From the NCBI GenBank assembly GCA_038045185.1, contig JBBSYO010000022.1, positions 164 to 64,163 of the forward strand: a stretch of 64,000 bases of DNA, read 5' to 3'. The stretch's first letter is position 1. Each line of letters starts with the position of its first letter. This DNA comes from Nanobdellota archaeon (GTDB taxonomy: Archaea; Nanobdellota; Nanobdellia; Pacearchaeales; GW2011-AR1). Made by a program: the position numbers and the translations under genes. Shown piece by piece: positions 15,727 to 61,299 of the stretch. Under the pieces are notes generated by a model, which did not search any database, was not told the DNA's origin, and saw only the letters and a program-made list of their open reading frames with translations.

Positions 15727-15879
15727 GTGGAACAAGTATGCCGTCATTGTCGATACCGTTATGAGGGACTTAACCCTAAAAAAACGTGTCCTTATTGCGG
15801 CGAAACTGGTCTCGTTACGGTTGAAGGGGCAGAGGATCTTATTGATGACCTTAATAAATCACGAATAATTCTTGCATAA
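15727..15879 (+). CDS. possible small zinc-ribbon protein (GTG start)
   Basis: 50 aa ORF with CRHC...CPYC (two CxxC pairs); no ATG, so a GTG start is assumed; overlaps the possible TTG start of the next gene. Confidence 0.25.
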   Translation: MEQVCRHCRYRYEGLNPKKTCPYCGETGLVTVEGAEDLIDDLNKSRIILA

Positions 15880-15880
15880 C

Positions 15881-16894
15881 ATGATAGCCATTTACCCCCT
15901 TGTATTGTTTGCCGTCAGTTTTTTTCTTACTCTTATTATAATGCCTTATTGGATACGGAAAGCTCATCAAATAAAGTTGGTTTGGGGAGACATGAACAAA
16001 TATGAAAGCCGTCTTGTCGCTGGCTCTGGAGGAGTAATTGTTCTGGGCAGCTTTATTGTTGGGGTTTTGTTTTTTATTGCCTATCGAATATTCTATTTGC
16101 AGGTCTCGGATTATTTGGTTGAAATATTGAGTTTGCTTGTGACTATGACGTTATTGGGAGGCATCGGTCTTATTGATGACCTGTTGGGATGGCAACACGG
16201 AGGATTATCACGGCGCTCGCGCATCCTGCTCGTCAGTCTTGCTTCGCTGCCCCTTATGGCGATAAATGCCGGAAAGGCAAGCATGGATTTACCTGTCTTG
16301 GGCGTGGTTGACTTCGGTCTTGTCTACCCTTTAGTTTTAATCCCGTTGGGAATTGCTGGTGCGTCTGCTACTTTTAATTTCCTTGCGGGTTTTAACGGTC
16401 TGGAAGCTGGACAAGGAATATTAATATTGGGCGCGTTGAGTGTTGCTGCCTACTTCACAGGGAATCATTGGTTGGCAGTTATTGGAATTTGCATGATTGC
16501 AAGCCTCCTCGGATTTTTGCTATTTAACTTCTTTCCTGCGCAAGTTTTTCCTGGTGATTGTTTAACATATCCTGTTGGGGGCATGATTGCAATTATGGCA
16601 ATATTGGGAAATTTCGAGAAGATTGCTGTCTGGTTCTTCATTCCGGTGATAATCGAAGTTGTGCTAAAGGCAAGGGGGCGGTTTGTCAAGCCGTCGTTCG
16701 GTAAGCCGCAGAAGAACGGTTCACTTGAGACTCCTTACCCAGAATTGTATGGATTGACACATGTAGCCCTTTGGGTGCAGAAGCGGCTCGGACTAGTGCC
16801 TACTGAACGCAGAGCAGTACTTCTTATTTGGGGATTCCAACTAATTATTATTCTTATTGGCTTCATCATTTTTAGAGGAGGAGTATTCTCTTAA
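15881..16894 (+). CDS. aglH: UDP-GlcNAc:dolichyl-phosphate GlcNAc-1-phosphate transferase (AglH/Alg7/GPT, MraY-WecA family)
   Basis: about 337 aa from ATG 15881 (ORF track uses TTG 15872); polytopic; DDLLG and FNFLAGFNGLEAG motifs of the GT4/MraY family. Confidence 0.8.
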   Translation: MIAIYPLVLFAVSFFLTLIIMPYWIRKAHQIKLVWGDMNKYESRLVAGSGGVIVLGSFIVGVLFFIAYRIFYLQVSDYLVEILSLLVTMTLLGGIGLIDDLLGWQHGGLSRRSRILLVSLASLPLMAINAGKASMDLPVLGVVDFGLVYPLVLIPLGIAGASATFNFLAGFNGLEAGQGILILGALSVAAYFTGNHWLAVIGICMIASLLGFLLFNFFPAQVFPGDCLTYPVGGMIAIMAILGNFEKIAVWFFIPVIIEVVLKARGRFVKPSFGKPQKNGSLETPYPELYGLTHVALWVQKRLGLVPTERRAVLLIWGFQLIIILIGFIIFRGGVFS

Positions 16895-18106
16895 ATGTTT
16901 AACAGAGAGTTTATTCGTGGCGGCCTCATTCTCGTTTTTTGTTTTGGCGTAGCCAACCTCATCAATTTTGCGTTTCACTTAAGCATGGCTAGATTTTTGA
17001 GCGTTGCGGATTATGGTCTGCTCGCAACACTTTTAGCCATCATCTATCTGCTTTCAATTTTATCAGAGTCTGTTCAGACCATTGTCTCAAAAAACGCTAG
17101 TAATAAAGAAGTTGATGTTCTTGGGGTAATGAATCGGTCTATGCGAAAAATGATGCGCCCCGCATTATTGCTATTCGCAACTTATCTAATTGTGTCTATA
17201 CCCTTGTCCGTCTTTCTCGATATCCCTTACTTCCTTCTTTCTCTAAACGGATTAATGATATTTGGTTCACTTTATATGCCAATTAACCGCGGATTGCTTC
17301 AGGGAAAAAAGAGGTTTCTGCCTCTCGGAGGCAACATGGTTATAGAGTCTGTCGGCAAGTTGGCTCTTTCTCTTGTTCTCGTTATAATTGGGTTTGCAGT
17401 ATATGGTGCAATTATCGGGGGTCTGCTAGGGGCCGGACTCGCTTATGCCGTGTCTTTTATCAACCTCAAGCCCCTATTCAATCGCAGCAAGAAGTTGGTT
17501 AAGAAAGAAATAGAATATAATTACGATAAAAAATCTTTCCTTACGATATTTTCTATAATGACTTTCTTTGCTATTGACATCGTTGTGGCGCGAATAGTTT
17601 TTGAGCCAAGCGTTGTTGGGACATATGCAATTGCGTCTACTATTGCCAAGACTATATTCTTTGCAACGATGCCGGTGGGCAAGGCAATGTTTTCATTTAC
17701 TGCTGAAAAATCCAGCGCGGAAAAATCTGAGAAAGTCTTTCTCAATGCACTAACATTTATTGGTTTTGGGATAATTGTTGCCTTAACCATGTTTTATTTC
17801 TTCCCCGGCTTGTGGGTGTTTATCTTTTCTGGTAAGCATTTACCGCTGGCGGCAGGTTCGCTCTTTATCCTTGGCATAGCTTATAGCCTAATTAGTCTTA
17901 CGAATCTGGTTCTTCTTTATAAAATTTCTATCGGCAATGTGCGCCACATATGGCTTATCGTCCTAATGCCAGTTATAGAAGTTGTGCTTCTATTCATTTT
18001 CTCTAAAAACATAATGCAATTTTCATTTGCCCTTGTAACGAGTTCAGCGTTGTTCTTGTGGGTTTCCCTTAGCAGCGATTATAGTTATAGTAGAAGACAT
18101 AAATAA
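16895..18106 (+). CDS. polytopic membrane protein, probable oligosaccharide flippase (Wzx/MATE-like)
   Basis: 403 aa, about 10-12 TM helices; located between aglH and the glycosyltransferase genes; family assignment is tentative. Confidence 0.45.
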   Translation: MFNREFIRGGLILVFCFGVANLINFAFHLSMARFLSVADYGLLATLLAIIYLLSILSESVQTIVSKNASNKEVDVLGVMNRSMRKMMRPALLLFATYLIVSIPLSVFLDIPYFLLSLNGLMIFGSLYMPINRGLLQGKKRFLPLGGNMVIESVGKLALSLVLVIIGFAVYGAIIGGLLGAGLAYAVSFINLKPLFNRSKKLVKKEIEYNYDKKSFLTIFSIMTFFAIDIVVARIVFEPSVVGTYAIASTIAKTIFFATMPVGKAMFSFTAEKSSAEKSEKVFLNALTFIGFGIIVALTMFYFFPGLWVFIFSGKHLPLAAGSLFILGIAYSLISLTNLVLLYKISIGNVRHIWLIVLMPVIEVVLLFIFSKNIMQFSFALVTSSALFLWVSLSSDYSYSRRHK

Positions 18107-18715
18107 AGAAAATCGTTGAAATTTCCTACCGAACCGGAGCAAGCTCCGCGGTATAAAAAACTCCTTGAATTCATCTTGGCAGTTTTTTAGCCAGAGAACA
18201 AAAGACTAAAATCTACTCCGATTTAGATAAAGGATTTTGTTCTCTGTATTCGGAAATGTCAAGATGCCTGATGACTTGCATCTTGAGCACACAAGGTTTG
18301 CAACTTTAAGCAAATCTTGCTGTTTCTGATTCACGATTTTCTAATTAGAATCGTCAAGAACAAAGTTCTTGAGCGCCTCGAAAATCTTACGAGATTTTCG
18401 CAGTTTTACTCCACAGCAAGCTGCGGGGTATTCAACCCAAAAATTCTAATCAAAAAGTCCTTGAGTTTTACCACATGTCAAAAACCACTGGTTTTTGAGC
18501 ACTGCCAAGAATGCAACGCCAGGCATCCTTGAGGGTTGGATGTGTCAAAAACTTCTTTTTTGAGACCTCGCAAATATAGACATTCCAGTTGATTGTGCTG
18601 TATCGGTGTGGGAATGTATAGACAGAGATTCTTGAGCAATAAGTAGCTTAATCAGGGGGAATCTCTGTATCTTGGATTCGTAAAGTTTTAAAAAGCCCCA
18701 TCTTCTCGAGTTGAT
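18107..18715. repeat. 609-nt noncoding region packed with TCAAGA...TCTTGA-type hairpin palindromes (hairpin array A)
   Basis: At least 8 perfect stems of 8-11 bp, e.g. 18193-18245, 18259-18286, 18354-18372, 18379-18400; shares conserved blocks with 40651-41308. Confidence 0.6.
18686..18694 (+). promoter_or_regulatory. TATA box TTTTAAAAA for the GT2-alg14-alg13-methyltransferase operon
   Basis: 22-30 nt upstream of the ATG at 18716 (leaderless spacing); followed by AGCCCC, as seen at 43971. Confidence 0.45.
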
Positions 18716-19507
18716 ATGCGCGTTTCGATTATTATACCTGCGTATAACGAGGAGAGACGTATATTGCCAATGCTCAGGCGATACGGAGAGTATTTTGAAG
18801 ACCTGAGAAAGAAGCGGGAGCTGAACTATGAATTTCTCGTTGTAATTAACAATACGACCGACAATACTCTTTCTGTGGTGAAGAATGCGCAAAAAACCAA
18901 CCCGCGTATCCACTATCTCGACCTCAAACTAGGCGGAAAGGGGCTTGCCATTATTGCGGGATTCAAAGACGCGCTCAAGCGACCCAACGACCTAATCGGG
19001 TTTGCCGATGCCGACATGGCAACTCCCCCAGAGGCCTTTTACGACCTTGTGCGTTCTGTTAATCGGTGCGATGGGGTCATTGCAGCCAGATGGAGACGCG
19101 AGAGCGTTATTACAAGGCAGACATCATTATTCAGAGTCAAGAGCTTCATTTTCAACCTAATCGTGCGTTCGCTCTTCCTTTTTCCCTATAGGGACACACA
19201 ATGTGGGGCGAAACTATTTACGCGGCGCGCCATTGAACATGTGCATGATAAAATGAGCATTACGAAGTGGGCCTTTGATATTGACCTTTTATACAAATTA
19301 CGAAAACTTGGATTCGCAGTTATAGAAAGACCTACTATTTGGGAGAGTAAAGAAGATTCACGCATTCGGCTCGTTACCGCATCTGTAGAAATGTTTTTGG
19401 CTGTTATTCGCCTGCGGCTTGTTCATTCCCCAATGGCATTTATCGTGCGAACCTATGACGCTCTCCCGCAACAATTAAAAATGCACCACCGTATCTGGAT
19501 TCAATGA
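18716..19507 (+). CDS. GT2 glycosyltransferase, dolichyl-phosphate hexosyltransferase-like (DPM1/AglD-AglJ-like)
   Basis: 263 aa; IIIPAYNEE...DxD-type motif FADADMATPPE...QCGAKLF typical of Dol-P sugar synthases. Confidence 0.78.
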   Translation: MRVSIIIPAYNEERRILPMLRRYGEYFEDLRKKRELNYEFLVVINNTTDNTLSVVKNAQKTNPRIHYLDLKLGGKGLAIIAGFKDALKRPNDLIGFADADMATPPEAFYDLVRSVNRCDGVIAARWRRESVITRQTSLFRVKSFIFNLIVRSLFLFPYRDTQCGAKLFTRRAIEHVHDKMSITKWAFDIDLLYKLRKLGFAVIERPTIWESKEDSRIRLVTASVEMFLAVIRLRLVHSPMAFIVRTYDALPQQLKMHHRIWIQ

Positions 19508-19983
19508 CGATTGCATTAGTTTCTTCACAAGGCGGGCATTCTGGACAAATGCGTATTCTTTTTACACCTAGCGTCTTGGAAAATCATCGTGCCATTTTCA
19601 TAACAGAGTCCGAATCTGCGCCAATGACTGTTCGTGATAAAGGATTTCAGGGGAAGTATAAGACGTATTACCTTGAGAAGGATGTTCTTTTACAACTCAA
19701 TCCTGTAGCTTACATAAAGAGCGTGATGGATTTGTACAATGTCTTCAAGCGCGAGAAAGTTCATCTTGTAATTACGAATGGTGCCCAGATTTCTATAACC
19801 GCAGGTATTGCCGCGCGTATTCTTGGCATACCCCTTGTTTTTATTGACACTGTTGTGCGCGTTAAGACTCCTGACTGGTCTGCTCGCGTCTGCTATTTTC
19901 TCTCTGACGTTTTTATAGTGCAGCATGCCTCAATGGCTCGCAGATATGGTCGTCGTGCGATTTATCGCGGAGAGATTCTATGA
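19504..19983 (+). CDS. Alg14-like UDP-GlcNAc transferase membrane-anchoring subunit
   Basis: 159 aa; SQGGHSGQM motif (compare the Alg14 GGHTxEM motif); ATGA-coupled to the Alg13-like gene. Confidence 0.72.
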   Translation: MTIALVSSQGGHSGQMRILFTPSVLENHRAIFITESESAPMTVRDKGFQGKYKTYYLEKDVLLQLNPVAYIKSVMDLYNVFKREKVHLVITNGAQISITAGIAARILGIPLVFIDTVVRVKTPDWSARVCYFLSDVFIVQHASMARRYGRRAIYRGEIL

Positions 19984-20456
19984 TTTTTGTCACTGTGGGC
20001 ACTCACCCTGGTGGATTTGACCGTCTTATACGCCACATGGACAAGATTGCAGGATTATTGAAAGAGAAAGTTATTATTCAGAGGGGATTCAATAAATACA
20101 CTCCGCAGAATGCGGAGTACTTCGATTTTGCAGATAACCTTGAACCGTACTTTTCCAAGGCGCGCATCGTCATCAGCCATTCTGCCACCTCGCTCGTTGA
20201 ATTTGTTCTAACCCAAAAGAAACCAATCATCGCAGTACCTAGGCGTGCAGATTTCGGTGAGCATATTAATGACCATCAAGTCGAATTCGCACGTTATCTC
20301 GAGCATAAACTTGGCATTAAGGCAGTAATGAATATACATGAGATTACTTCTGCGTTGTTGATTGGATACAATACTCTACCGCGCGTTGATCGCAGCGGAA
20401 TGAAACGTTTGCAAAATTTTTTAAAAAATATTATTTCGACTTATGAACCCAATTGA
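19980..20456 (+). CDS. Alg13-like UDP-GlcNAc transferase catalytic subunit (GT28 C-terminal domain)
   Basis: 158 aa; MIFVTVGTHPGGFDRL start typical of Alg13/MurG C-terminal domain proteins. Confidence 0.72.
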   Translation: MIFVTVGTHPGGFDRLIRHMDKIAGLLKEKVIIQRGFNKYTPQNAEYFDFADNLEPYFSKARIVISHSATSLVEFVLTQKKPIIAVPRRADFGEHINDHQVEFARYLEHKLGIKAVMNIHEITSALLIGYNTLPRVDRSGMKRLQNFLKNIISTYEPN

Positions 20457-21102
20457 ACCGTTTGCTTTCACGCGCATAGATTATGTTATCAACCTTATAG
20501 CACCACACAAAAAACAGAGAATATTGCACATTGGAGTTTCCAATATACCTGACATTGAAAAGCTAGTTGAAAATACTGTTGCTGAGTCAGTGACAGTTGA
20601 TATCGATAAGGAGAAGATAGAAAAGGCAAGGTCGCATGTTACAAAGGCGCGTATTCTTGAAGACGACATTATGCGCCCGGCAAAGCTAAAGAAGGGGCAT
20701 TTCGACGTGGTTGTCATGCTTGAAGTTCTTGAACATTTGAAAGATGATGTTGGTGCGCTTAACACGATACATCGCCTTCTGAAAAAGGGAGGCCATCTTA
20801 TCATATCTGTGCCAAACAAGGACTTGCGCCATGTGATAAACCCAGTTAAATATTTTGAACATGAAAGACACTATTCAAATGAAGATATTATCGAAAAGCT
20901 GCGCGGCGCTGGATTTGGTATCGAGCATTTTAACGTAGTGGAATCATTCAGTTTGCTGGCTAATCTCTACCTGCATATCATCATGAAATTTCTATTAAGG
21001 AAGAACGTTCCGTTCAATTTCTTTGACCGGCATCATAACAAGACGTATGCACAATATAATCGGCATGGTCTTGACATTATTTTGAAGGCGCGTAAAATTT
21101 AG
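20443..21102 (+). CDS. class I SAM-dependent methyltransferase
   Basis: 219 aa; LHIGVS... motif I region, VVMLEVLEHL and KKGGHLIISVP motifs. Confidence 0.7.
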   Translation: MNPIEPFAFTRIDYVINLIAPHKKQRILHIGVSNIPDIEKLVENTVAESVTVDIDKEKIEKARSHVTKARILEDDIMRPAKLKKGHFDVVVMLEVLEHLKDDVGALNTIHRLLKKGGHLIISVPNKDLRHVINPVKYFEHERHYSNEDIIEKLRGAGFGIEHFNVVESFSLLANLYLHIIMKFLLRKNVPFNFFDRHHNKTYAQYNRHGLDIILKARKI

Positions 21103-22103
21103 CGTTTACTAACGTACCCGATATAGTTTCTAATGAAGAATAGAGTTATAATCCCATATTCGAGAGTTATGAAAAATGTGTAAAGCGGATGAAGCAACCA
21201 GAATAATTTTCTTTTCTTGCTGAATTGTTTAATCGCAGTTATAAACGGAACAAGCAGGCTAAGGTTTGAAGCAACGCGCAACCAAAATCGTATCTTGCTT
21301 CTCAAATCATTCCCGGCCCAGTTATACTTCTTCCAGGAATAATCGTTCCTGATGAAGCGGCAATAATATTTTCCTTTCTTTATCATAAATGATGACAGAC
21401 TGTTTGAGGTTTTGTGATATAACCTTGATTTCTGAGGGATGGCGACTTTCATTCCGCAATCTGCCATGTCCTTAAAGACATCGACATCTCTAGTGTAACC
21501 TCCGATTATCCCGAAAACTTCCTTTCTGAAAAGGCATCCGTTAGCTCCTCCAAAGAGGACATGTTTTGGATTTAGCGTGTGGACATAGTATCCGTTTACG
21601 GACTCGAATTGCTCTGGACGCAAAACTGCTTGCGATACCAGAGAGTAGTCTACGGCGAAGGGGTCTTCCACTCCAAGCGCGTTCACGTACTTCAAAAATG
21701 GAGGATCTCCAGGCAGATACATAAGAAATGATTGCGAAGCCATTATTTGGTTGTCTTCTCCCATTGGCCGCATCATTTCAGCCAGCCAGTCATTATGGAG
21801 AAGGATATTGTCATGATCTAAAAAAACTATATATTCGCCTCTTGCGGAAGAAACACCCTGATCTTTCCCGTTACCTTTTCCTTCGGATAGAGTGAAGGGG
21901 TTGTGCATGAGCTTTATCTGTGCGTTTTCTTTCTGGAGCACCCTTACAGCGGAGAGAGTTCCGTCATTTGAACCCCCATCAATGACAATAATTTCATAGT
22001 TACCCGATGGGTAATCTTGAGAGAGTATCGATGCAAGGCATTCTTTAATGGTCGAGATTCCATTAAGTACGGCTATCACGAAACTGACTTTTATTTTGTT
22101 CAT
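21099..22103 (-). CDS. GT2 family glycosyltransferase
   Basis: 334 aa; SFVIAVLNG...IIVIDGGSNDGT...FLDHDN (DxD) motifs. Confidence 0.75.
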   Translation of the reverse strand: MNKIKVSFVIAVLNGISTIKECLASILSQDYPSGNYEIIVIDGGSNDGTLSAVRVLQKENAQIKLMHNPFTLSEGKGNGKDQGVSSARGEYIVFLDHDNILLHNDWLAEMMRPMGEDNQIMASQSFLMYLPGDPPFLKYVNALGVEDPFAVDYSLVSQAVLRPEQFESVNGYYVHTLNPKHVLFGGANGCLFRKEVFGIIGGYTRDVDVFKDMADCGMKVAIPQKSRLYHKTSNSLSSFMIKKGKYYCRFIRNDYSWKKYNWAGNDLRSKIRFWLRVASNLSLLVPFITAIKQFSKKRKLFWLLHPLYTFFITLEYGIITLFFIRNYIGYVSKR

Positions 22104-23953
22104 TAGATTTTTATCTTGCGCGGATTTTGTCCGTCTATGTATTCCTTATACCATAGTTCTAGGTTCAACAGTACCCAGAGACGATGATCGTTTCTAAATG
22201 CGCCGGTATTTTTCATTATTTTGTCAATCTCGGTTCCTTTAATGATATGACGCGACTTCAAATCTTCGATGTGCGGCTTAATTCTCTGGACAAATTCTTT
22301 CCGTTGCATCCAACTGGACAAGGGCAGAGTGAAACCTTTCTTTGACCTGCGGAGGATAGTCTTGGGCAAAAGATCCTTAACAACCTCTCTAAAAAGTCTC
22401 CGATTATACTTATATTCTAGACCAATCTTCGAATAATACTCTACTAGCTTGACGTCGAGAAAGGGGGCGCGCACCTCTAATCCGTGAGCCATGCTCGTTT
22501 TATCTACTTTCATGAGCAAATCGTTGGGCAACCACTCTTTGAAATAAAACTGAATTACCTGGTTTTCTATATTTTTTTCTGAATTTATCAGCGAGTCAAC
22601 GGCGGTTGCGGGATTAATCTTTTTTACAACTCCTGCAACAAAAAGATTTCTTTTATCAGCTCTATTAAACGGAAAATAAAATAATCGCTTGGTATTTTCT
22701 ACTAAATCTTTTGGATGCGCTGCTATTTCCGCAGCTAGATTTGACATTTGTTTGTAAGGATATCGTAAGATGGCTGAGCTTGCAGATAGTGCAGGAGAAA
22801 CAACTCCCTTTGATAAAAATGAGGGCGTCCGGGCTATCCTTCTCAATGCAGGGATTTTGTTAAAGGAGTCGTAGCCTCCGAAGACCTCATCTCCTCCTTC
22901 TCCAGAGAGCGCAACCTTAACCTTCTTCGAAACTTCCTTGCATAAAAGATAGGTGGGTAGCGAGGCGGGATCTGCCAATGGCTCGTCGAGATGCCATACA
23001 ACCTGAGGTAGAATGCCTAAGATGTCTCGGTCTAGCATGATGCTTGTATGATTTGTATTGTAGGCTCGTGCGACTTTCTCCGCGTAGGGAGATTCGTCTG
23101 AGCCGTCGCTGAAACCTACTGAAAATGTTTGGATATTATCTGTGAAACGAGACATGTAAGATACTATTGTGCTTGAGTCTAAACCGCCAGAAAGAAAGAC
23201 TCCGATTGGGACATCTGCAAGTAACCTTTTTTTGACTGAATCTGCTATCAAGGAATCTACTTCTTTTCTTGAAGGTTTTTGAGTTTCTGATAATACTGGC
23301 AACTTCCAATAAGAGTGCCTTTTTATCCTTCCTTGAGAGAATAAAATTGCGGTTCCAGGTTCGAGCTTTCGCACAGCAGAAAAGATAGTTGTGTTTCCTG
23401 AAGAGAAACGAAGGGTGAGAAAATTAGAGATGGATTGCATATCTATTCCCCTATCAAGTTCTGTATCTTCAAGCAATGCTTTTATTTCGGAAGCAAATGC
23501 AATTCCATTTTCGTTCTTGTAATAGTATAGCGGTTTTTTTCCTAATCTGTCGCGCGCAAGCACTAACTCCTTTTTGCGCCTGTCCCATAGTGCAAAGGTG
23601 AACATGCCATCCAAATGCTGTAAAACTTTAACCCCGTACTCTTGATAACCATGAAGAATTGCTTCTGTGTCTGAATTGCTACTGAATCTGTACCTGAGTT
23701 TTATTAGCTGCTCCTTAAGTTGGGGATAGTTGTAGATCTCTCCGTTGAATATAATGACATAGTTATCGTCTTCAGTAAACATTGGTTGGTGACCTTTCTC
23801 TGATAAGTCGAGAATACTCAACCTCCTATGCCCAAGAGATATGTCTTTATCTATATAGAAACCTTCGTCGTCTGGACCGCGATGCTGAATGGCTCGCGTC
23901 ATCTTTCTTATAAGGGATTTATCTTCCCAGGTGAAACCTGCTATTCCGCACAT
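22103..23953 (-). CDS. asnB: asparagine synthase (glutamine-hydrolysing)-like amidotransferase
   Basis: 616 aa; N-terminal MCGIAGF Ntn nucleophile and PP-loop SGGLDSS. Confidence 0.9.
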   Translation of the reverse strand: MCGIAGFTWEDKSLIRKMTRAIQHRGPDDEGFYIDKDISLGHRRLSILDLSEKGHQPMFTEDDNYVIIFNGEIYNYPQLKEQLIKLRYRFSSNSDTEAILHGYQEYGVKVLQHLDGMFTFALWDRRKKELVLARDRLGKKPLYYYKNENGIAFASEIKALLEDTELDRGIDMQSISNFLTLRFSSGNTTIFSAVRKLEPGTAILFSQGRIKRHSYWKLPVLSETQKPSRKEVDSLIADSVKKRLLADVPIGVFLSGGLDSSTIVSYMSRFTDNIQTFSVGFSDGSDESPYAEKVARAYNTNHTSIMLDRDILGILPQVVWHLDEPLADPASLPTYLLCKEVSKKVKVALSGEGGDEVFGGYDSFNKIPALRRIARTPSFLSKGVVSPALSASSAILRYPYKQMSNLAAEIAAHPKDLVENTKRLFYFPFNRADKRNLFVAGVVKKINPATAVDSLINSEKNIENQVIQFYFKEWLPNDLLMKVDKTSMAHGLEVRAPFLDVKLVEYYSKIGLEYKYNRRLFREVVKDLLPKTILRRSKKGFTLPLSSWMQRKEFVQRIKPHIEDLKSRHIIKGTEIDKIMKNTGAFRNDHRLWVLLNLELWYKEYIDGQNPRKIKI

Positions 23954-23975
23954 AAAGAGATTATTTAAGAACGCT

Positions 23976-25580
23976 TTATAAATTGTCTGAAAGATAAGTT
24001 ATTTTATAAATGAAGATGCCGTTAAGCGAGTCTTGTGGATAGATATAGTCGAATTGGTATTTCTTATCGAGTACAGTGCGCGGTTTAAGATCCAGGCTTT
24101 TGAGCGTGCCCTGGGGTGCAATGCTAATTGAAGAGTTGAAGAAGGGCATTACTATCTCCATACTCCCGTCAGAATATCTTCTTTGAGTGATAAGCCAGTC
24201 TGGATGATTGGGCTCGATGATAGATAACATGATGTAGGCAGGTTTCTTTTCGTCTAAAAGTTTAGTAAAGTTTTCTGGAGATAAACGAGCATAAGTGAAA
24301 ACCAATCTCTCGGAGTAGGTTACGGTTTGGGTGTAAGAAACGCTGAGAATACTGTCTTGCGGGTTTGAGTTATCTTTTATCCAGAGAGATGCTTCTTTAA
24401 TAGGAAGATAAGAAGACTTCTTTATCTCGACGAGAGAGTTTGTATGTTGTATTTGGTAATAGATAAAAATAGATAAGAGGATTATAATCAGTATGGCTGC
24501 GATTTTTTTGTTATGGGGCGAGATTTTTTCAGAGAAGAAGGTTAGTCCAGTGGCAGAAAAGTACATGACGAACGGAATCATGAGAAAAACCCATCGGTCC
24601 TCTATTGTTCCTCTAATGTAGAAGATATAGAACAGACTAAGCGTGAGCAAGATTATTAAAGAGAACACATTTGCGTCAAGCCTTTTCTCCTTATTTTGAA
24701 GTAGGATATCAAATGAAATCGCGAGATTGAACAACGCAACGCAAATCCCTGATATAAACAGGACAAAAAATATGCCTTTGGGAAATTGGTAAAAGTAGTT
24801 TAAGACCATCCAGCCCAAATCCCAGCCTTGCCCTATGCCTGTTCCTCCTATATACGATGGAGCGAATGCGGCAGGATTGCCGAATAACGCGTATTGCCAT
24901 ATGGCAAATGGCACCAGAGTTATAATGAAGGCAAGAAGAGCAATCCAATATCTCTTATGTTTTATGAAAGATAATCCGTCTTTGAACAATATGAATAAAA
25001 ACAGTGAGAGTGGGACTAATAATGCGGAAATTTTGAAGTAGAAACCAAGTGCTGCAAAAACTCCCCCATAGATGGCGTGCGATTTTTTATTGTCCTTAAA
25101 GAGCTTCCAGAAAAATAGAAGAGATAACAGTTGGAAGCTCAATGATAGATAGTCTGGCTGAAATCTTGCGCTCCAGAACAATAGAGACCATATGAAAGAA
25201 GAAGCGAATGCAGCAATAAGTGCGATTTTTTTAGTGAAGAGTTCCTTACCTAGGAGGTATATGCAGACGATTACAAAAGTTGAAGGGACCAAAACAAGCA
25301 AAAATTTCAGAGCACCTTCCGCAAGCCCTATCTTTAATAAGGGAACTGCTAGAAGTTGAAATAATGGGGGTCGTTGCGGATTAAGATTATACGGCACGCC
25401 AAACGCCCAGTGTTTTGCCGTTGACATATATTCGGCTTCATCCCACCAAAGCGGTTGATTATAAGCTTGGATGAAAAAATAGAGGCGCAACAGAAATGCG
25501 GTAACTATGAGCAGAACAAATCCAATATTGTATTTGTCCTTCAGCCAAATTTTGATTGCGTCTTGTGGTCGTACAGCCAT
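23976..25580 (-). CDS. GT-C fold membrane glycosyltransferase (ArnT/PMT-like, GT39/83)
   Basis: 534 aa; about 11 N-terminal TM helices plus a C-terminal soluble domain; N-terminal YFFIQAYNQPLWWDEAEY loop typical of the GT-C family. Confidence 0.65.
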   Translation of the reverse strand: MAVRPQDAIKIWLKDKYNIGFVLLIVTAFLLRLYFFIQAYNQPLWWDEAEYMSTAKHWAFGVPYNLNPQRPPLFQLLAVPLLKIGLAEGALKFLLVLVPSTFVIVCIYLLGKELFTKKIALIAAFASSFIWSLLFWSARFQPDYLSLSFQLLSLLFFWKLFKDNKKSHAIYGGVFAALGFYFKISALLVPLSLFLFILFKDGLSFIKHKRYWIALLAFIITLVPFAIWQYALFGNPAAFAPSYIGGTGIGQGWDLGWMVLNYFYQFPKGIFFVLFISGICVALFNLAISFDILLQNKEKRLDANVFSLIILLTLSLFYIFYIRGTIEDRWVFLMIPFVMYFSATGLTFFSEKISPHNKKIAAILIIILLSIFIYYQIQHTNSLVEIKKSSYLPIKEASLWIKDNSNPQDSILSVSYTQTVTYSERLVFTYARLSPENFTKLLDEKKPAYIMLSIIEPNHPDWLITQRRYSDGSMEIVMPFFNSSISIAPQGTLKSLDLKPRTVLDKKYQFDYIYPQDSLNGIFIYKITYLSDNL

Positions 25581-25666
25581 ACCCCCCCCACTTAGAGAAG
25601 CTATTTATACCTTATCGATTTTCTATAAGAACAGCGAGATAGGTTTTTTTATCGGTGTTAACACAA

Positions 25667-28396
25667 TTAAACCCGAAGTAGCTCTGGAGGCCATTCCTCG
25701 CTGAGGTATTCTTTCTTAAATTCGATATCGCTTGGGTAGTGTATTTCCCATATTTTTATTGGACCACGTAGCGCGTCATAACTTATGATTGATGAGTTAA
25801 AGCTGGGCACTTGCTTTTTTATTTCGGCAACAAAAAAATCATCCTCTGAATGAACCAATTCGAAATTTGGATTGACCTCATTGTAGAAGTATAGCCGTGC
25901 AAATTGAGAATTTACGGCCCTAGAGCTTAGATAGAGTAGTGAACCGTCATCTTGTATTTGCAATCCATTGGCGCCGTTAATCAAACGGGGAATGAAAAAT
26001 ACACCAGATTCGATGCCGCTACCGAAGTCTTTTAGCTCTCCATCAAATGCATATCTTAAAGGAAGGTTATACTGTCGGTCTTGGTTCACGAATATGCCTA
26101 CTGGCTGGCTTATCATCTCCCCAGTTGTAGATGATTTTTCTATTAAGAGGGCACCAAGAGCAGCCGTGCCTTCGGGCAGAAATATTCTTGTCCCGTTATC
26201 TTCATAAATTATATCTGCGTCCAGTAGAACGCCTCCAGAATATAAAAAGACGGTTGAGTTCTTTCTTTCCTGAATCTGGCTTAAATCTTGATTGAATGTT
26301 GCAAAGAAGCTAACGCGATCATAGTTTTTATCAGAGCCTATACTGGAAAAGGCGCTATATTTCCCGATATCTGTAGAATCGATGAGGAAATGAGTGGTAT
26401 TGTGCGCGTACAGAAATTCTAACGCTTCCTTATTGCTTGTTCCTGTAAGTGCGTATCTACCCATAAGATGATTCCAATAAGATTTTGCGTTGCCCCCGTC
26501 CAGAACAGTAGCACGTTCGCCTAGAGTCTGAACCCAATACCCGTAATCCCACCAATGACCAAATACTGCGTTTGGGGGCGTGCTTTCTCGCACCCAAGCC
26601 ATTGCCTTCTGCCATTGTTGATTGTACGGACTTGGAATGTAACCTGCGGCCGTGGCGACTGAAGTCTTATAAAACTGATATCCTGAAAAGATAAAGGCTA
26701 CGATTATTATGCCTGCACAGATTATTGAGATTGTGCGCTTAGTTGACTTCTCTGTATTTAGTGCGAGACTTGCTATTTCAACCGAGAGATATGCGGCAAG
26801 TATAGATGCCGCAGGGACTAGCATCATAACCAGTCTAATGCCGCCCCTGGCAGATATTAGACTTATCAAAAAGAAGCACAAGACAAAGATAGAACTGAAT
26901 TCTATATTTTTGAGCCGTTCTTGTTCTCCAGACTTGTAGTGTAGGCGATAGTAATAACCTAATGTTGCCAGAAGCACTATGGGTCCGAGGGCGTAAAATA
27001 ACAGGCTCAAACCATTTGTGCCGTTGAAGGTGCTGTTTCCGGAATATCTGCTAAAGATGATTGAAGTTAAAAATAACGTAAATGCCAATGTGGAGAGCAT
27101 TCTCTCTCTTGAGTTAAGAGACTTGATTGCCCTGTAGAACAAGCCAATGGCCCCAAAAAAGAATGACCAGAATATTATTTTTACTCCTGCTATTTTAGGT
27201 CCGAAACTGTCGGCCCATTCAACAAAATAGGGCTGTTTATTTTCTGCAACAGTGACGCTCAAACGATCTGTAGACGTCGTCACTAGGAATTTCTTCAGAG
27301 TTAGGACTTTCTCTCCTATCAGACTTGGTCCGAAAACAATAGCGCTAACAACTAGTACAAGGACTATCGTTGTTAAAAGAGAAAAAATCGGTCTTGGAAT
27401 TTTAGCTATTTTCTCATGGGATAAATAGTTCTTTATACGTGTATCAAATAAAATTGAATCGACTATTATAACGAGAAGCGCAAGGACGCTGGGAAGATTT
27501 GTCGTTGAGGTCAACAGTTCAGAGAGGGAATAACGGTTCGTGCCAAGGAACAGGAGGATGAAAGCGGTAAGAAGCCAGACTGCATAAAGGTATTTTTTCC
27601 CTTTATCCATCTTTCCCAAAAGGAACGCAATTAGAACTGCCGGACCTATGGTAAGAATGATGTAGAGATATCCGCCCCATACGAGGCCCATGAGATCTGT
27701 AGATATTCCTGCAAGCAGACCATAGGTGTATCTACTGATTTGACCTCTTGCTTTCCATCCGCACATGAAAAAATAGAACGCGAGGAAGAGGAACAAAATT
27801 CCGCTTGCTTCCTTTTCTGGAATGCCTGCAATTGTTCGCGGCAGCAGGGCTGGAATGACTGATAAGAAGAGAGATGCGACAAGCGCGATAATGTTGGCCT
27901 TGTTTTTGCCCATATTTTCTGCAAAGAACTTTCGAGTCATAAAAAAGAAGGTAATAACTGCCAAGGCGAACATGACTGCAGGATATAGCACTGCAGATTG
28001 AGTTATTGAGCCCGACCCAAAAAATACAGCTATTTTGTGGAACCAAGTAATTAGATAGACGTGCAGATTGAGTTCGTATGCGGTGTCGTATCCGAGCGGC
28101 GCATATCGCATAGTATCGACAACCATCAAAGCGCCATGCTCTAGGATATACTTAGCCCATCTCAAGAATAGAAAGGGATCGAGGTCTGGTCCAAGTGTCC
28201 AGTCTCCAGTCGTTATATCTCTCAGCCCTGGCAGATTAGCGATTCTTATTCTTATGGCAAGGAAGGTTATGATTGCGAGAAGAACGTAAGAGATAAAATT
28301 CGTGTCTTTTTTTATAAAATTCAGAACTTTTTCTTTTCTTTCCCGTATAATGGTTTCGCTATGGTCTGAGGCGCTTGATTCGTCCATTGCTACCAA
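25667..28396 (-). CDS. aglB: oligosaccharyltransferase AglB (STT3 family)
   Basis: 909 aa; 13-TM N-terminal region, WWDYGYW motif, DIGK (DK-type) motif, early DLD loop. Confidence 0.9.
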   Translation of the reverse strand: MVAMDESSASDHSETIIRERKEKVLNFIKKDTNFISYVLLAIITFLAIRIRIANLPGLRDITTGDWTLGPDLDPFLFLRWAKYILEHGALMVVDTMRYAPLGYDTAYELNLHVYLITWFHKIAVFFGSGSITQSAVLYPAVMFALAVITFFFMTRKFFAENMGKNKANIIALVASLFLSVIPALLPRTIAGIPEKEASGILFLFLAFYFFMCGWKARGQISRYTYGLLAGISTDLMGLVWGGYLYIILTIGPAVLIAFLLGKMDKGKKYLYAVWLLTAFILLFLGTNRYSLSELLTSTTNLPSVLALLVIIVDSILFDTRIKNYLSHEKIAKIPRPIFSLLTTIVLVLVVSAIVFGPSLIGEKVLTLKKFLVTTSTDRLSVTVAENKQPYFVEWADSFGPKIAGVKIIFWSFFFGAIGLFYRAIKSLNSRERMLSTLAFTLFLTSIIFSRYSGNSTFNGTNGLSLLFYALGPIVLLATLGYYYRLHYKSGEQERLKNIEFSSIFVLCFFLISLISARGGIRLVMMLVPAASILAAYLSVEIASLALNTEKSTKRTISIICAGIIIVAFIFSGYQFYKTSVATAAGYIPSPYNQQWQKAMAWVRESTPPNAVFGHWWDYGYWVQTLGERATVLDGGNAKSYWNHLMGRYALTGTSNKEALEFLYAHNTTHFLIDSTDIGKYSAFSSIGSDKNYDRVSFFATFNQDLSQIQERKNSTVFLYSGGVLLDADIIYEDNGTRIFLPEGTAALGALLIEKSSTTGEMISQPVGIFVNQDRQYNLPLRYAFDGELKDFGSGIESGVFFIPRLINGANGLQIQDDGSLLYLSSRAVNSQFARLYFYNEVNPNFELVHSEDDFFVAEIKKQVPSFNSSIISYDALRGPIKIWEIHYPSDIEFKKEYLSEEWPPELLRV

Positions 28397-28458
28397 GAAA
28401 AAGTCCTTCTTATATAAACCTTTATCCGCGAACAGATAGCCTCAAAATCGCTTAAACG

Positions 28459-29259
28459 CTACACCGTCTGTTTTCCGGAAAAAAATCCCTTCCAGAAGCC
28501 ATGCAGAAAGTAAGGGTGGCTTATAACAGATGTAACTAAATAAGCAGGGAGCAGGGCAAGACCTTTACGCCAAGGGTAGCTGACAAATTGGAGTAGTATT
28601 CCGGCAATTGGTAATGCTTTCAAAAGACCCACATATCCTCGTGGTATGCGAAACCCGTACATTCTTAAGAGTGCTCCAAATCCATTAGCATATTGATAGG
28701 TCTTTCTGAGGCGTTGTTTGAACGTCGTTGGGTGAACGTGGAGCACGACTGCGTTAGGATAAGCAATTTTACCTTTCTCTTTTATTTTCATATACATGTC
28801 AAAATCCTCCCCAGCTGTTCTGAAATGAGTTTCGTTAAAGAGACCTACTTCTTTTAGAGTGCTTTTACGATAGGCATCTCCTTTCTCATCTAACAGAGGA
28901 GTTATAGTTCCTTTCTCATTAAGAGTCATGGCGCGAGTAAAAATACCAAATCTGCCCCATAACTGCACGGGAAAATGCACCTTCGATGCACTTGCAACTA
29001 TTGCTGAATCCTTGAGAGGTCCAACCAGATTTTCGAGCCAGTGCTCGCCTTCGGGAATACAATCTTGGGGGAGAGTAACTACAATTTCATACTTTGATTT
29101 GTTGATTCCGTAATTCATTTGTTTGGCCATCCCCCAACCCTTGTCAATGGGAAGCACTTCAACACCCCCAGAAAACTTTTGTTTTTTTACTGCAGTCAAG
29201 ACCCTTTGCAAAATTTCCTTGTTCGCCTTGTAGATGGGAAGAACAATCGACACATTCAT
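28459..29259 (-). CDS. GT2 family glycosyltransferase
   Basis: Likely start MNVSIVLPIYK at 29259 (the ORF track extends to 29433); GT2 N-terminal region and DxD-type motifs. Confidence 0.65.
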   Translation of the reverse strand: MNVSIVLPIYKANKEILQRVLTAVKKQKFSGGVEVLPIDKGWGMAKQMNYGINKSKYEIVVTLPQDCIPEGEHWLENLVGPLKDSAIVASASKVHFPVQLWGRFGIFTRAMTLNEKGTITPLLDEKGDAYRKSTLKEVGLFNETHFRTAGEDFDMYMKIKEKGKIAYPNAVVLHVHPTTFKQRLRKTYQYANGFGALLRMYGFRIPRGYVGLLKALPIAGILLQFVSYPWRKGLALLPAYLVTSVISHPYFLHGFWKGFFSGKQTV

Positions 29260-29469
29260 GATGATGACGTGGAAGACTGCTTTAAATATCTTTTCAGAAG
29301 TGCCAAGAACCGCCAGTCGCAGACCGAGGTATGTAAACGCCATACTTCGCGTGGTCGTCGAGAATCTTTGTTCTTGATGACCGTCAAAGTTAAAAATCTT
29401 TGGGGGCGTGGTTTTTTTCAAGTTCCTTGACATCAGAAGATTTTGAGGTCTCAGAATTTCCCTAGAGAT

Positions 29470-29500
29470 TAAACCACTCGTCTTTGACGAGTGGAATTCC
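29470..29500. repeat. 9-bp stem hairpin (CCACTCGTC ttt GACGAGTGG) plus GAATTC and an AGTTTAAAAG box
   Basis: Perfect inverted repeat between two minus-strand genes; the 14-mer GACGAGTGGAATTC recurs at 41198-41211. Confidence 0.55.
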
Positions 29501-29505
29501 TCAGT

Positions 29506-30066
29506 TTAAAAGAGCGCACCTATCTCCTTAAATAAAGGATGCTTCTTGTCACGTTCAGAGAGAATTGGATTTTTTATACCCCAGATGATTGCCAGTTCGG
29601 AATCGTTCCAGATTATTCCTCCTTCGGATTCTTTATTATAAGGAGAGGTCGCTTTGTAGTGCATGATTGTATCGTCTTCAAGCGCGAGGAAACCGTGAGC
29701 AAAACCCGCAGGTATCCAGAGCATCTTATTATTCTCTCCTGAAAGAATCGTGGAAAACCATTTCCCATTGGTTGGAGAATGCTCTCGTATATCGACTGTT
29801 ACATCAAGCGCCTTGCCTCGTATCACCCTGACCAGTTTTCCTTGTGCAGAGGGATATTTCTGAAAATGCAAACCACGTATAACTCCTTTTTTTGAGCGTG
29901 ATTGGAATTCTAAGGGAAATTTAAGCGGAATATGCATGGACTTTAATTTCTCATAGTTATAGTTTTCGAAGAAAGTACCACGAGCATCTGTAAACACATC
30001 TGGTAAAATCTCAACAAGACCTTCGAATGGTGTCTTCTTGATTTCCATAGGAATGCAAACGCGCAT
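29506..30066 (-). CDS. rmlC: dTDP-4-dehydrorhamnose 3,5-epimerase
   Basis: 186 aa; cupin with RGLHFQ and WIPAGFAHGF motifs characteristic of RmlC. Confidence 0.85.
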   Translation of the reverse strand: MRVCIPMEIKKTPFEGLVEILPDVFTDARGTFFENYNYEKLKSMHIPLKFPLEFQSRSKKGVIRGLHFQKYPSAQGKLVRVIRGKALDVTVDIREHSPTNGKWFSTILSGENNKMLWIPAGFAHGFLALEDDTIMHYKATSPYNKESEGGIIWNDSELAIIWGIKNPILSERDKKHPLFKEIGALF

Positions 30067-30104
30067 ACATTTTTAATGGTTTCGATGACACAAAAGTATT
30101 TAAA

Positions 30105-31355
30105 GTGAACCTTGAGTCAGCACGTATGGACAAGGAAGGACTATTGGCGCTCATCCGCGATGATGCGCGTGTATTTAATGCAATCAATGCACTGAGAAAC
30201 TCCTTTAGCCCGTTGCGATTTAATGATGTTCGCATTCCTAACGCCACACCGGCGGAGGCAATTAAACGAGGAATTCGGACTGTTCAAGAAACGCTTACGG
30301 CGTATGATGCTTTTGGTTTGAAGGTTGACGACATGGACCCTGGTCACGGAGTAGGGCACTTAGCGCGAGATTATATTAATGCCTTGCGACTTACGCATAT
30401 GGATTACGTAACTGATCCCAGCCATCTCTTTGTAGGGTTTGTTGGGGGAGTTTTACATGATATGGGAAATGCGATTGTTGAACGCTATGAAGAAGGTAAG
30501 CGGGTTACACGCCACGGTGAAGCTGGAGCGCTCCTTTTCAATGAGGCGACAAAAGACCTTGACCTTAATGATGCAGAACGTACTCTTATTGCTCATTCTA
30601 TTGCGGCTCACACCCATTACCTGAAACCCTTGTGTGTTAAGGGAGTAGATGGTATAGAACGTACTTTGCCTCCCTACCAAGATACGGATGAGGAAGGCAA
30701 GCCTGTCATGGGGGTATGGCTGCCTCGATGGATTGATAGACTGGATTGTAATGGTTCGGCTTTCTTGGGCAGACACTTTTTGACACTCGTGAACCCACGA
30801 GATGAATTTGACGGCGAGAAATTCTATCAAACTGATATTGTGAGCGCGTTGAATCCTCTATTGCGACCAGAAGTAGAGATTAAGGTGGCTGGAGCACATC
30901 CCCTTACTATGCGTGAGCATTTACGCAGGTATGCACGCACCCAAAGCAATAATTCTCCCTATGGAAAGCATGATAACGGAACTATGCAATCTCTGCGCGA
31001 TACCAATACAACCGCGCTTAATGCTATAATCGGAGCAGTCGATCGCGACGCGCTTCTTGGCTCGTCAGACATAGAACACATTCTGGGAAGGTGGACCACG
31101 TTCTTATCTGGAAATGTTGAGCCTAGCATGCTTGGAAGACACGCTGCTGAAAAAATGCGCAGCAAGTTTGGCGAACTTGATGAGTCCACACGGCGGGCTT
31201 GGGCATCTGGTTTTGATCAGGCTTTAGAGACGTATCGTGTCTGGGCCGCAATGGCAAAGAGTCAGGTCGGGGAAATTATTGGTTCAGATGAAGAAGCTCA
31301 GAAGCTACCTCTTTTAAACAAGAATGTTTTTGACGTCCTGAAACCTGCCTACTAA
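30105..31355 (+). CDS. HD-domain phosphohydrolase family protein with an uncharacterised C-terminal half
   Basis: 416 aa; H...HD...H...D pattern (GHGVGH, VLHDMGN, RHGEAG, AHSIAAHTH); GC-richer than its neighbours; opposite strand inside the rml cluster. Confidence 0.55.
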   Translation: MNLESARMDKEGLLALIRDDARVFNAINALRNSFSPLRFNDVRIPNATPAEAIKRGIRTVQETLTAYDAFGLKVDDMDPGHGVGHLARDYINALRLTHMDYVTDPSHLFVGFVGGVLHDMGNAIVERYEEGKRVTRHGEAGALLFNEATKDLDLNDAERTLIAHSIAAHTHYLKPLCVKGVDGIERTLPPYQDTDEEGKPVMGVWLPRWIDRLDCNGSAFLGRHFLTLVNPRDEFDGEKFYQTDIVSALNPLLRPEVEIKVAGAHPLTMREHLRRYARTQSNNSPYGKHDNGTMQSLRDTNTTALNAIIGAVDRDALLGSSDIEHILGRWTTFLSGNVEPSMLGRHAAEKMRSKFGELDESTRRAWASGFDQALETYRVWAAMAKSQVGEIIGSDEEAQKLPLLNKNVFDVLKPAY

Positions 31356-48799: not shown

Positions 48800-48862
48800 T
48801 TAAACCTTTTTATGCCAAGAGTGTTTATAAAACAAGGATACCTCCAGTCATATGTGGGCAGC

Positions 48863-59609: not shown

Positions 59610-59680
59610 TGCGCGGTACGGGAATCGAACCCGTAACCGCGGATTGGAAATCCGCTATTTTGCCATTAAACTAACCGCGC
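59610..59680 (-). tRNA. tRNA-Gly (anticodon UCC)
   Basis: 71 nt; 7-bp acceptor GCGCGGU/ACCGCGC, D stem GUUU/AAAU, anticodon stem GCGGA/UCCGC with loop UUUCCAA, T loop UUCGAUU; no encoded CCA. Confidence 0.75.
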
Positions 59681-59720
59681 TTGTTATTCTTATCAAGAAA
59701 GATGTTTTAAACCTTTTCAA

Positions 59721-59795
59721 CGCCCTCGGCAGGATTTGAACCTGCAACCTTTGGGTTAGGATCCCACTGCGCTATCCGGGTTGCGCCACGAGGGC
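59721..59795 (-). tRNA. tRNA-Arg (anticodon CCU)
   Basis: 75 nt; acceptor GCCCUCG/CGAGGGC, D stem GCGC/GCGC, anticodon loop AUCCUAA, T arm GCAGG-UUCAAAU-CCUGC, discriminator G. Confidence 0.72.
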
Positions 59796-59796
59796 A

Positions 59797-59881
59797 TGTG
59801 GGCGCTAGGATTCGAACCTAGGAAGGCACTAAGCACAGTAGCTCTTGAGGCTACCCCGTTTGACCGCTCCGGCACGCCCAC
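59797..59881 (-). tRNA. tRNA-Leu (anticodon CAA), class II with a long variable arm
   Basis: 85 nt; acceptor GUGGGCG/CGCCCAC, anticodon stem GUAGC/GCUAC with loop CUCAAGA, 16-nt variable arm, T arm CUAGG-UUCGAAU-CCUAG. Confidence 0.72.
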
Positions 59882-59907
59882 ATCTCAATGAGAGATAGAA
59901 AGGCGTT

Positions 59908-61095: not shown

Positions 61096-61299
61096 GCTTG
61101 CTCGACAGAACATGGAAAGCTTTATAAGTACTATTGTAGGACAAAATATGAAGACGGCCATAGTGATCAGGAAACACCTGTTCCCTTTCCGAACACAGCA
61201 GTTAAGCTGATCACGTCGGTCGCGGTAGTCTCCGAACAGAGGCGAAACACCGATGCTGTCTTCGCCATATTCCTTTTTATAATCCAGTTTCTTCTTAAT

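Follow-up and report, generated by a model that had tools for sequence, protein, structure and literature searches.

A split Alg14/Alg13-like gene pair of the EpsE/EpsF branch lies with an Alg7-type transferase and AglB in a conserved DPANN glycosylation locus

When an Alg7-type transferase, a split pair of Alg14-like and Alg13-like proteins and the oligosaccharyltransferase AglB are encoded in a single archaeal locus, does that locus build the chitobiose core known from eukaryotes, in which two N-acetylglucosamine (GlcNAc) residues are carried on dolichyl pyrophosphate (Dol-PP), or does it build something else? We examined this question in a 64,000-nucleotide stretch of a Nanobdellota archaeon (contig JBBSYO010000022.1 of assembly GCA_038045185.1; hereafter the window), where an initial annotation had proposed a eukaryote-like Alg7–Alg13/Alg14 module at positions 15881-20456. 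Our analysis makes it probable, though by no means secure, that this region is the cytoplasmic-face initiation part of an N-glycosylation locus conserved in DPANN archaea, in which the split pair would add the second sugar to Dol-PP-linked N-acetylhexosamine (Dol-PP-HexNAc). The earlier picture of an Alg7-type enzyme, a split pair and AglB brought together in one conserved locus thus stands, while its description of the pair as eukaryote-like and membrane-anchored does not.

Open reading frames (ORFs) were taken from a six-frame list, and the Pfam matches reported below for GT4, the operon GT2 and the Alg14-like and Alg13-like proteins lie above the gathering cut-offs. The genes named in the initial annotation, its two ATGA overlaps, its two sequence motifs and AglB are all present in the window. 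The GT4 gene, encoding an AglH/Alg7 (DPAGT1)-type polyprenyl-phosphate HexNAc-1-phosphate transferase (15881..16894, + strand; PF00953), is directly abutted (16894/16895) by a gene for a multi-spanning, MOP/Wzx-type oligosaccharide flippase-like membrane protein (16895..18106, +; PF01943 34.9 bits, PF13440 30.3 bits). A 610-bp non-coding spacer (18107..18715) divides this sub-module from a second one, an operon that opens with a family 2 glycosyltransferase (GT2) gene (18716..19507, +; PF00535 69.5 bits) and continues with the Alg14-like (19504..19983, +) and Alg13-like (19980..20456, +) genes, so that 2.6 kb separate the end of the GT4 gene from the Alg14-like gene, as had been noted. The two ATGA overlaps, read from the sequence, lie at 19504-19507 (GT2/Alg14-like) and 19980-19983 (Alg14-like/Alg13-like), and a gene for an S-adenosylmethionine (SAM)-dependent methyltransferase (20443..21102, +; PF08241 and PF13489, each about 55 bits) extends the operon as its last member, with a 14-nt overlap with the Alg13-like gene.

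What kind of enzyme do the two small proteins form? The Alg14-like subunit (159 aa) begins MTIALVSSQGGHSGQM, carries the predicted GGHSGQM motif and matches PF08660 (39.7 bits, E = 6e-10, covering residues 66-156 only); the Alg13-like subunit (158 aa) begins MIFVTVGT, again as predicted, and matches PF04101 (54.6 bits, E = 2e-14), these being the two Pfam matches that the annotation had proposed to look for. Against the fused WelK model, the former aligns to positions 1-150 and the latter to positions 168-300. AlphaFold (AF2) models of the two proteins are confident (pLDDT 89 and 90, respectively), with Foldseek matching the Alg14-like model to GT-B N-domains, including that of MurG, and the Alg13-like model to donor domains of GT1/GT28 enzymes. 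Within the Alg14-like family, SQGGHxGQ is invariant across 24 homologues and its SQGGH aligns to eukaryotic GSGGH; the His of this GGH loop is essential in Agl24 and MurG (PMC8993221). Residues R15, R62, P87-R88, E94 and N97..H99-Q100 are invariant in the Alg13-like family, and with them the E..N.HQ donor-site motif. Together the two proteins make up a MurG-like GT-B enzyme split in two, the Alg14-like protein being its N-terminal, acceptor-side Rossmann half and the Alg13-like protein its C-terminal, nucleotide-sugar-binding half.

To which branch of the MurG/Alg13-14 superfamily does this split enzyme belong? The best-scoring named families for the pair are PssD and PssE, whose names we equate with EpsE/EpsF and Cps14F/Cps14G (NCBIfam NF041549 / NF041548): the PssD/Cps14F model gives the Alg14-like protein 97.8 bits (cut-off 110) and the PssE/Cps14G model gives the Alg13-like protein 108.2 bits (cut-off 120), both over nearly the full length. 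PssE/EpsF proteins of bacterial exopolysaccharide (EPS) plasmids share 30-43% identity with the Alg13-like protein. Searches of the PDB with single sequences returned no significant matches for either small protein, phmmer with the Alg13-like protein finding no match to yeast Alg13; the profile of the Alg14-like family matched no Alg14 chain there, and a 33-sequence profile of the Alg13-like family reached yeast Alg13 only marginally (21 bits over 48 residues).

We then scored the subunits against reference groups with hidden Markov model (HMM) profiles, taking bacterial EpsE/EpsF pairs from annotated plasmids, eukaryotic Alg14 from database sequences, and yeast Alg13 from a sequence that is identical to PDB 2KS6 at 201/201 residues; the eukaryotic set is small, comprising fungi and mammals for Alg14 and yeast only for Alg13. 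The window Alg14-like protein scores 69 bits with the bacterial profile versus 37 bits with the eukaryotic one. The bacterial PssE profile gives DPANN Alg13-like proteins 124-140 bits and yeast Alg13 29 bits, and the DPANN Alg13-like profile, conversely, gives bacterial PssE proteins 82-127 bits and yeast Alg13 15.7 bits. A bootstrapped neighbour-joining (NJ) tree of Alg14 homologues separates a DPANN clade (96.5%), the eukaryotes (99.5%), and a set of bacteria and other archaeal pairs, with the mean DPANN-eukaryote distance being the largest (0.83 vs. 0.72-0.79). Published trees contain fused-archaeal, split "EPS-like" (bacterial and archaeal) and eukaryotic clades (Lombard 2016, PMC4973528), and place archaeal EpsE/EpsF mainly in Euryarchaeota and DPANN, interspersed with bacterial sequences (Meyer et al. 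2022, PMC8993221); our placement agrees with both. By these profile and tree comparisons, the pair falls in the EpsE/EpsF "EPS-like split" branch and not in the eukaryotic one, which is the very outcome that the initial annotation had said would speak against its eukaryote-like reading, and the named-family scores and the cross-scores of both subunits all point the same way.

Homology to eukaryotic Alg14 is nonetheless real as judged by profile-profile alignment, since hhalign aligns the Alg14-like family with eukaryotic Alg14 at 98.4% probability over 155 columns (yeast residues 53-236), a match confined to the globular part that follows the eukaryotic transmembrane (TM) helix. That helix has no counterpart here: hydropathy detects no hydrophobic segment before residue 95 of the Alg14-like protein, whereas such a segment lies at residues 1-30 in yeast and primate Alg14. 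The Alg14-like protein is soluble and without a TM anchor, and the N-terminal membrane anchor ascribed to it is absent. A further peculiarity concerns residues 68-73 of the Alg13-like protein, where DPANN sequences read H/Q-S-A-T-S, bacterial and other archaeal relatives H-G-G-(P/A)-(A/G)-S, and yeast Alg13 H-A-G-T-G-S; as far as alignment can tell, the glycine-rich loop that binds the donor phosphate has lost its glycines in the DPANN proteins.

We compared the pair with characterised systems. With bacterial EpsE/EpsF it shares a pair of neighbouring genes, each for about 150-160 aa, in D-then-E order, often overlapping, the lack of a TM segment in either partner (window pair and bacterial references alike), and the SSxGGH and EHxN(D/N)HQ motifs. 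It differs from them in its primer, which is an Alg7-type transferase rather than a PF02397 sugar transferase making Glc-PP-undecaprenol (Glc, glucose), in its AglB/N-glycosylation context rather than a Wzx/Wzy EPS cluster, and in the HSATS of the DPANN donor subunit in place of HGGxxS. The Lactococcus reference cluster, for instance, has both a PF02397-type primer and chain-length/tyrosine-kinase genes, and the scanned window ORFs include neither. With eukaryotic Alg13/Alg14 the pair shares its split architecture, domain order, GGH loop and Alg7-type genomic partner, but it lacks the N-terminal TM anchor by which Alg14 recruits Alg13 to the membrane, and similarity between DPANN Alg13-like proteins and eukaryotic Alg13 is very weak (15.7-21 bits). 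Agl24 of Sulfolobus acidocaldarius is another archaeal member of the MurG/Alg14-13 superfamily, acting after AglH and carrying a GGH with an essential His (PMC8993221), but it is one fused polypeptide of a Crenarchaeota/Bathyarchaeota clade, whereas the window pair is split and belongs to the EPS-like sister clade. The published group that holds the window pair is that of the split EPS-like homologues of Euryarchaeota and DPANN (PMC4973528, PMC8993221).

We next consider the enzyme that would prepare the acceptor. The mechanical ORF of GT4 starts at TTG 15872, but translation more likely begins with the ATG at 15881, which agrees with the N-termini of homologues and gives a 337-aa product that is found unchanged in the protein collection. 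The protein matches PF00953 (106.2 bits, E = 2e-30) and shows about 9-10 hydrophobic segments. Its best PDB match as a single sequence is human DPAGT1 (59 bits, vs. 37 bits for MraY), and a family profile of 13 members widens this to 107 bits for human DPAGT1 versus 55 bits for MraY; the NCBIfam MraY and WecA models, in turn, score GT4 far under their cut-offs. Aligned with DPAGT1, it matches at three motifs (the DD in GLIDDLLG, NFLAGFNGLEAGQ, and FPGD), and the catalytic motifs DD, N-G-L-E-A-G-Q and (V/F)xGD are invariant across the 13 homologues. On these scores and motifs the protein is clearly Alg7/DPAGT1-like and not MraY-like, in keeping with the AglH/Alg7 type assigned to it before. HexNAc-1-phosphate transfer by GT4 is likewise well supported by its family, with GlcNAc as the specific sugar being our inference. 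The GlcNAc-recognising cytoplasmic loop of DPAGT1, Arg301-His302-Arg303, has at the corresponding place in the window protein K-A-R-G-R, whose last Arg is variable in relatives (RGK, RGS, RGA, KGK). No other phosphoglycosyl transferase (e.g., PF02397) was found among the window ORFs scanned. Immediately upstream, ending 2 nt before the GT4 ATG, we also observed a 50-aa zinc-ribbon ORF with a CxxC...CxxC pattern (MEQVCRHCRYRYEGLNPKKTCPYCGE...; 15727-15879, +), which is probably a real small gene because four related loci (L008, L016, L019 and L020) have copies of it (about 46% identical) in the corresponding position, with SpoIIM on one side and GT4/AglB on the other.

Is the association of these genes more than a peculiarity of one contig? 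The nearest homologues of the window proteins come from metagenome-assembled genomes (MAGs) of Pacearchaeota, Woesearchaeota and Nanoarchaeota, all DPANN, and exact copies of window proteins are deposited in GenBank from a "Nanoarchaeota archaeon" MAG (MEK6896285.1, "hypothetical protein"; MEK6896286.1, "glycosyltransferase"). Searching 20 related loci with the window proteins (tblastn), and drawing on gene calls as well, we recovered a common order next to SecY, namely prefoldin, SpoIIM, [AglB], GT4, flippase, an insert of 0-5.6 kb, GT2, Alg14-like, Alg13-like and methyltransferase, followed by a convergent block of GT2, AsnB and PMT_2. The order from GT4-flippase through GT2-Alg14-like-Alg13-like-methyltransferase to GT2-AsnB-PMT_2 is present in 12 of the 14 distinct genomes with enough upstream flank. 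The flippase gene always follows the GT4 gene in relatives; the split into two genes is kept in 16/16 of them and the ATGA/GTGA overlap between the two in 14/16; and the methyltransferase lies 3' of the Alg13-like gene in all related loci, as well as in a distant archaeal pair (L028). Glycosylation clusters are also the setting of more distant archaeal pairs (about 43% identity), and in one case STT3 is close by.

The position of AglB is more variable. In eight relatives (L002, L005, L009, L010, L012, L014, L016 and L017) an AglB orthologue stands directly upstream of GT4 on the same strand, and in the window, L008, L019 and L020 it is missing from that slot. In the window it lies past the convergent GT2-AsnB-PMT_2 block, as an AglB/STT3 oligosaccharyltransferase gene (25667..28396, − strand; PF02516 65 bits, PF21436 27.6 bits) with WWDYG at residues 615-619 and a DxD near residue 76. 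The Alg7/AglH-type enzyme, the split pair and AglB are thus found together in one locus, as the initial annotation had it, and related DPANN genomes keep them linked; because of this conservation, the pair is very plausibly an early lipid-linked-oligosaccharide glycosyltransferase, and the genomic context supports a role for it on the lipid that carries the N-glycan. Published phylogenies already include split EPS-like Alg14/13 homologues from DPANN; for the conserved AglB-AglH-flippase-GT2-pair-methyltransferase locus next to SecY, we found no description in the literature searched.

From this gene content, the folds and motifs, the branch and the conserved linkage, we infer a pathway whose individual steps would run as follows. 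The Alg7/AglH-type enzyme would, as its family suggests, place HexNAc-1-phosphate, most likely GlcNAc-1-phosphate, on dolichyl phosphate. The translationally coupled Alg14-like and Alg13-like proteins would then assemble as a split MurG-like GT-B enzyme (as fold, motifs and linkage suggest), the Alg14-like half offering the GGH loop that faces the lipid pyrophosphate in relatives and the Alg13-like half binding the nucleotide sugar, and would transfer a second sugar to Dol-PP-HexNAc, the bond formed probably being beta-1,4. Lacking a TM anchor, the pair would have to bind the membrane peripherally or be brought there by a partner, for example the Alg7-like enzyme. The coupled methyltransferase, other GT2 enzymes and the AsnB-type amidotransferase may elaborate the glycan, the MOP flippase would move it across the membrane, a GT2 (Dol-P-sugar synthase-like; Dol-P, dolichyl phosphate) and GT-C pair may add sugars outside the membrane, and AglB would hand the product to Asn.

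Several observations weigh against this assignment. Bacterial EpsE/EpsF act on a Glc-PP-lipid from a different primer family, so that the acceptor proposed here is an extrapolation. The GlcNAc-recognition loop of DPAGT1 is not alignable with GT4, the HMM alignments ending at DPAGT1 residue 289. The PssD and PssE scores lie slightly under the curated cut-offs, the DPANN clade forms its own long branch in the Alg14 NJ tree as a divergent subgroup, and HSATS takes the place of the HGGxxS glycine loop of relatives throughout the Alg13-like clade. On the genomic side, the GT4-flippase and GT2-pair-methyltransferase sub-modules are split by the variable insert of 0-5.6 kb, and in two exceptional loci, L013 and L018, GT4 was not seen in the available upstream flank.

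Which sugar, then, would the pair transfer? The initial annotation had the pair act as a UDP-GlcNAc:Dol-PP-GlcNAc beta-1,4-GlcNAc transferase like Alg13/Alg14 or Agl24, yielding a chitobiose core, and we regard this as possible but doubtful. MurG uses UDP-GlcNAc on a HexNAc-PP-lipid acceptor. GlcNAc is further favoured because close linkage of the pair to an Alg7/DPAGT1-like enzyme and to AglB recurs from locus to locus, and because the characterised superfamily members that act on a HexNAc-PP-lipid (Alg13/14, Agl24) all use UDP-GlcNAc (PMC8993221). The G-loop GGHSGQM of the Alg14-like protein also resembles eukaryotic GGHTGEM, and its TNGA resembles NGPG. Branch membership, on the other hand, favours Glc, galactose (Gal) or glucuronic acid (GlcA): both subunits group with EpsE/EpsF-type enzymes, the characterised ones transferring Glc or Gal from UDP-Glc or UDP-Gal (PMC8993221), and the PssE/WelK family names pointing to a GlcA donor. 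The Alg13-like family profile barely detects yeast Alg13, and the Alg14-like protein lacks the TM anchor. One residue difference may serve as a lead only and would count against chitobiose, namely that the position of human ALG13 Asn107, a disease site, seems by our alignment to be Asp in the DPANN clade. Since branch members transfer Glc and Gal according to the literature and GlcA according to family names, the donor is not readable from sequence, with GlcNAc (giving chitobiose), Glc, Gal and GlcA all being candidates. An inference of the donor from the NDHQ motif was dropped, as the motif is common to enzymes with different donors, and the literature examined on the superfamily holds no residue rule separating GlcNAc from Glc, Gal and GlcA donors. 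Genes for Ugd, GlmS/GlmU and WecB, whose nucleotide sugars might have given a clue to the second residue, are absent from the window, where the only nucleotide-sugar genes are those for dTDP-rhamnose, a GDP-mannose dehydratase, an aminotransferase and C-methyltransferases. The further remark that a chitobiose-based N-glycan would be uncommon among characterised archaeal pathways is partly dated, such cores having been described across Thermoproteota and in Nitrososphaera (PMC11407970, PMC12153357).

Two further explanations move the pair away from Dol-PP-HexNAc altogether. N-glycan precursors linked to Dol-P and primed by GT2 enzymes are known in Euryarchaeota, and the pair might accordingly extend a Dol-P-sugar made by the co-transcribed GT2 (cf. 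Methanococcus voltae AglK) or act later in the glycan. The operon GT2 is coupled to the Alg14-like gene and always adjacent to it, with the GT4 gene up to several kb off, it resembles polyprenyl-phosphate sugar synthases, and most archaeal initiation uses GT2-group enzymes (PMC4973528). We nevertheless consider this unlikely: characterised MurG/Alg13-14/EpsEF members all take pyrophosphate-linked acceptors (PMC8993221), the GGH loop is kept here, and small GT2s in related loci recur beside GT-C (PMT_2) genes, which fits a role in supplying Dol-P-sugars to outer-face transferases. It is less probable still, to a degree that makes it a marginal option, that the product of the module is not attached to protein but is an exopolysaccharide, a capsule, a glycolipid or the like, unrelated to N-glycosylation. 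This would suit the PssD/PssE family assignment and the fact that the closest non-archaeal relatives lie in bacterial EPS plasmid clusters, but the scanned window ORFs include neither a PF02397 primer nor the Wzy, Wzz or tyrosine-kinase machinery, and AglB is adjacent in the window and directly upstream of GT4 in most relatives. Addition of a second sugar to Dol-PP-HexNAc is the reading we prefer.

The resemblance of the operon GT2 to polyprenyl-phosphate sugar synthases of the DPM1/ArnC/GtrB type is suggested by its best PDB matches (ArnC 40.6 bits, the Pyrococcus Dol-P-Man synthase 5MLZ 35 bits, GtrB 32 bits) and its best NCBIfam matches (PgfS and ArnC). Its ATG is preceded, at a distance of about 25 nt, by the A/T-rich, TATA-like TTTTAAAAA; a sigma-70 promoter scan was uninformative, the host being an archaeon. 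The spacer upstream (18107-18715) has no coding homology to related loci and no Rfam family, for which reasons a pseudogene or an RNA was rejected, and it holds short direct repeats (e.g., AGCAAGCTCCGCGGTAT / AGCAAGCTGCGGGGTAT) and hairpins near chance levels. It may be a deletion or rearrangement scar, since the three relatives examined at this position carry a small GT2 and PMT_2 (GT-C) pair there.

Downstream of the operon, three genes on the − strand hold positions that are conserved in related loci: a convergent GT2 glycosyltransferase (21099..22103; PF00535 86 bits), an asparagine-synthase-type glutamine amidotransferase, AsnB (22103..23953; TIGR01536 488 bits, PF00733 293 bits), which is a candidate for amidating sugar carboxylates, and a GT-C (PMT_2) membrane glycosyltransferase (23976..25580; PF13231 56.7 bits) with about 10 hydrophobic segments, which probably uses Dol-P-sugars on the outer face. 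One related contig (L001; ENA ERZ2470813 NODE_2070) is about 99% identical to window positions 18355-30400, yet several of its genes are broken or shortened (an Alg13-like protein of 147 aa; methyltransferase, GT2_334, AsnB and PMT_2 split), which suggests faulty assembly or sequencing, or else decay in a sister strain.

On a larger scale, the window starts with a ribosomal-protein/SecY cluster, followed by a glycosylation island of about 36 kb. The part at 28459-52510 is unusually rich for a reduced genome, containing RmlC, a DegT aminotransferase, RmlD, a GDP-mannose 4,6-dehydratase, an FkbM methyltransferase, a second flippase and several GT2 enzymes, along with what looks like a fusion of RmlD and RmlA (33431-35026), overlapping RmlB, a pair of TylC3-like sugar C-methyltransferases (44001-45227 and 51278-52510) and a second PMT_2 GT-C (48812-50683). 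The island probably yields glycans rich in methyl groups and made of deoxy sugars. Two island ORFs (30105-31355, +, 416 aa; 45224-46342, −, 372 aa) gave no Pfam match and no hydrophobic segment. Beyond the island, three tRNA genes (Gly-TCC, Arg-CCT, Leu-CAA) cluster at 59610-59882 and a lone 5S rRNA gene lies at 61150-61264. The 5' end of the 5S gene shares 12 nt with the upstream end of an ORF for a double kinase-like protein of 417 aa (59908-61161, −); either this ORF has been given too early a start or the two features lie end to end.

A more far-reaching proposal, which we put forward tentatively and hold to be rather improbable, is that the TM-less EPS-like pair, recruited to the membrane by the Alg7-like protein, builds a eukaryote-type Dol-PP-GlcNAc2 core in Pacearchaeota- and Woesearchaeota-type DPANN. 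If true, the logic of the Alg7-Alg13/14 initiation complex, including the gene split, would exist in a deep archaeal lineage outside TACK/Asgard, and the EPS-like branch would include genuine chitobiose synthases. The locus itself is a useful if unsurprising addition and a well-defined candidate for a simple enzyme assay. No characterisation of Pacearchaeota or Woesearchaeota N-glycans was found in the literature searched. Whether or not the second sugar is GlcNAc bears on the spread of the eukaryote-type chitobiose core in Archaea, and its identity also bears on the debated bacterial versus archaeal origin of Alg13/Alg14. Collectively, these ultra-small archaea give a large, conserved, SecY-adjacent locus to surface glycosylation, which is probably central to their host contacts.

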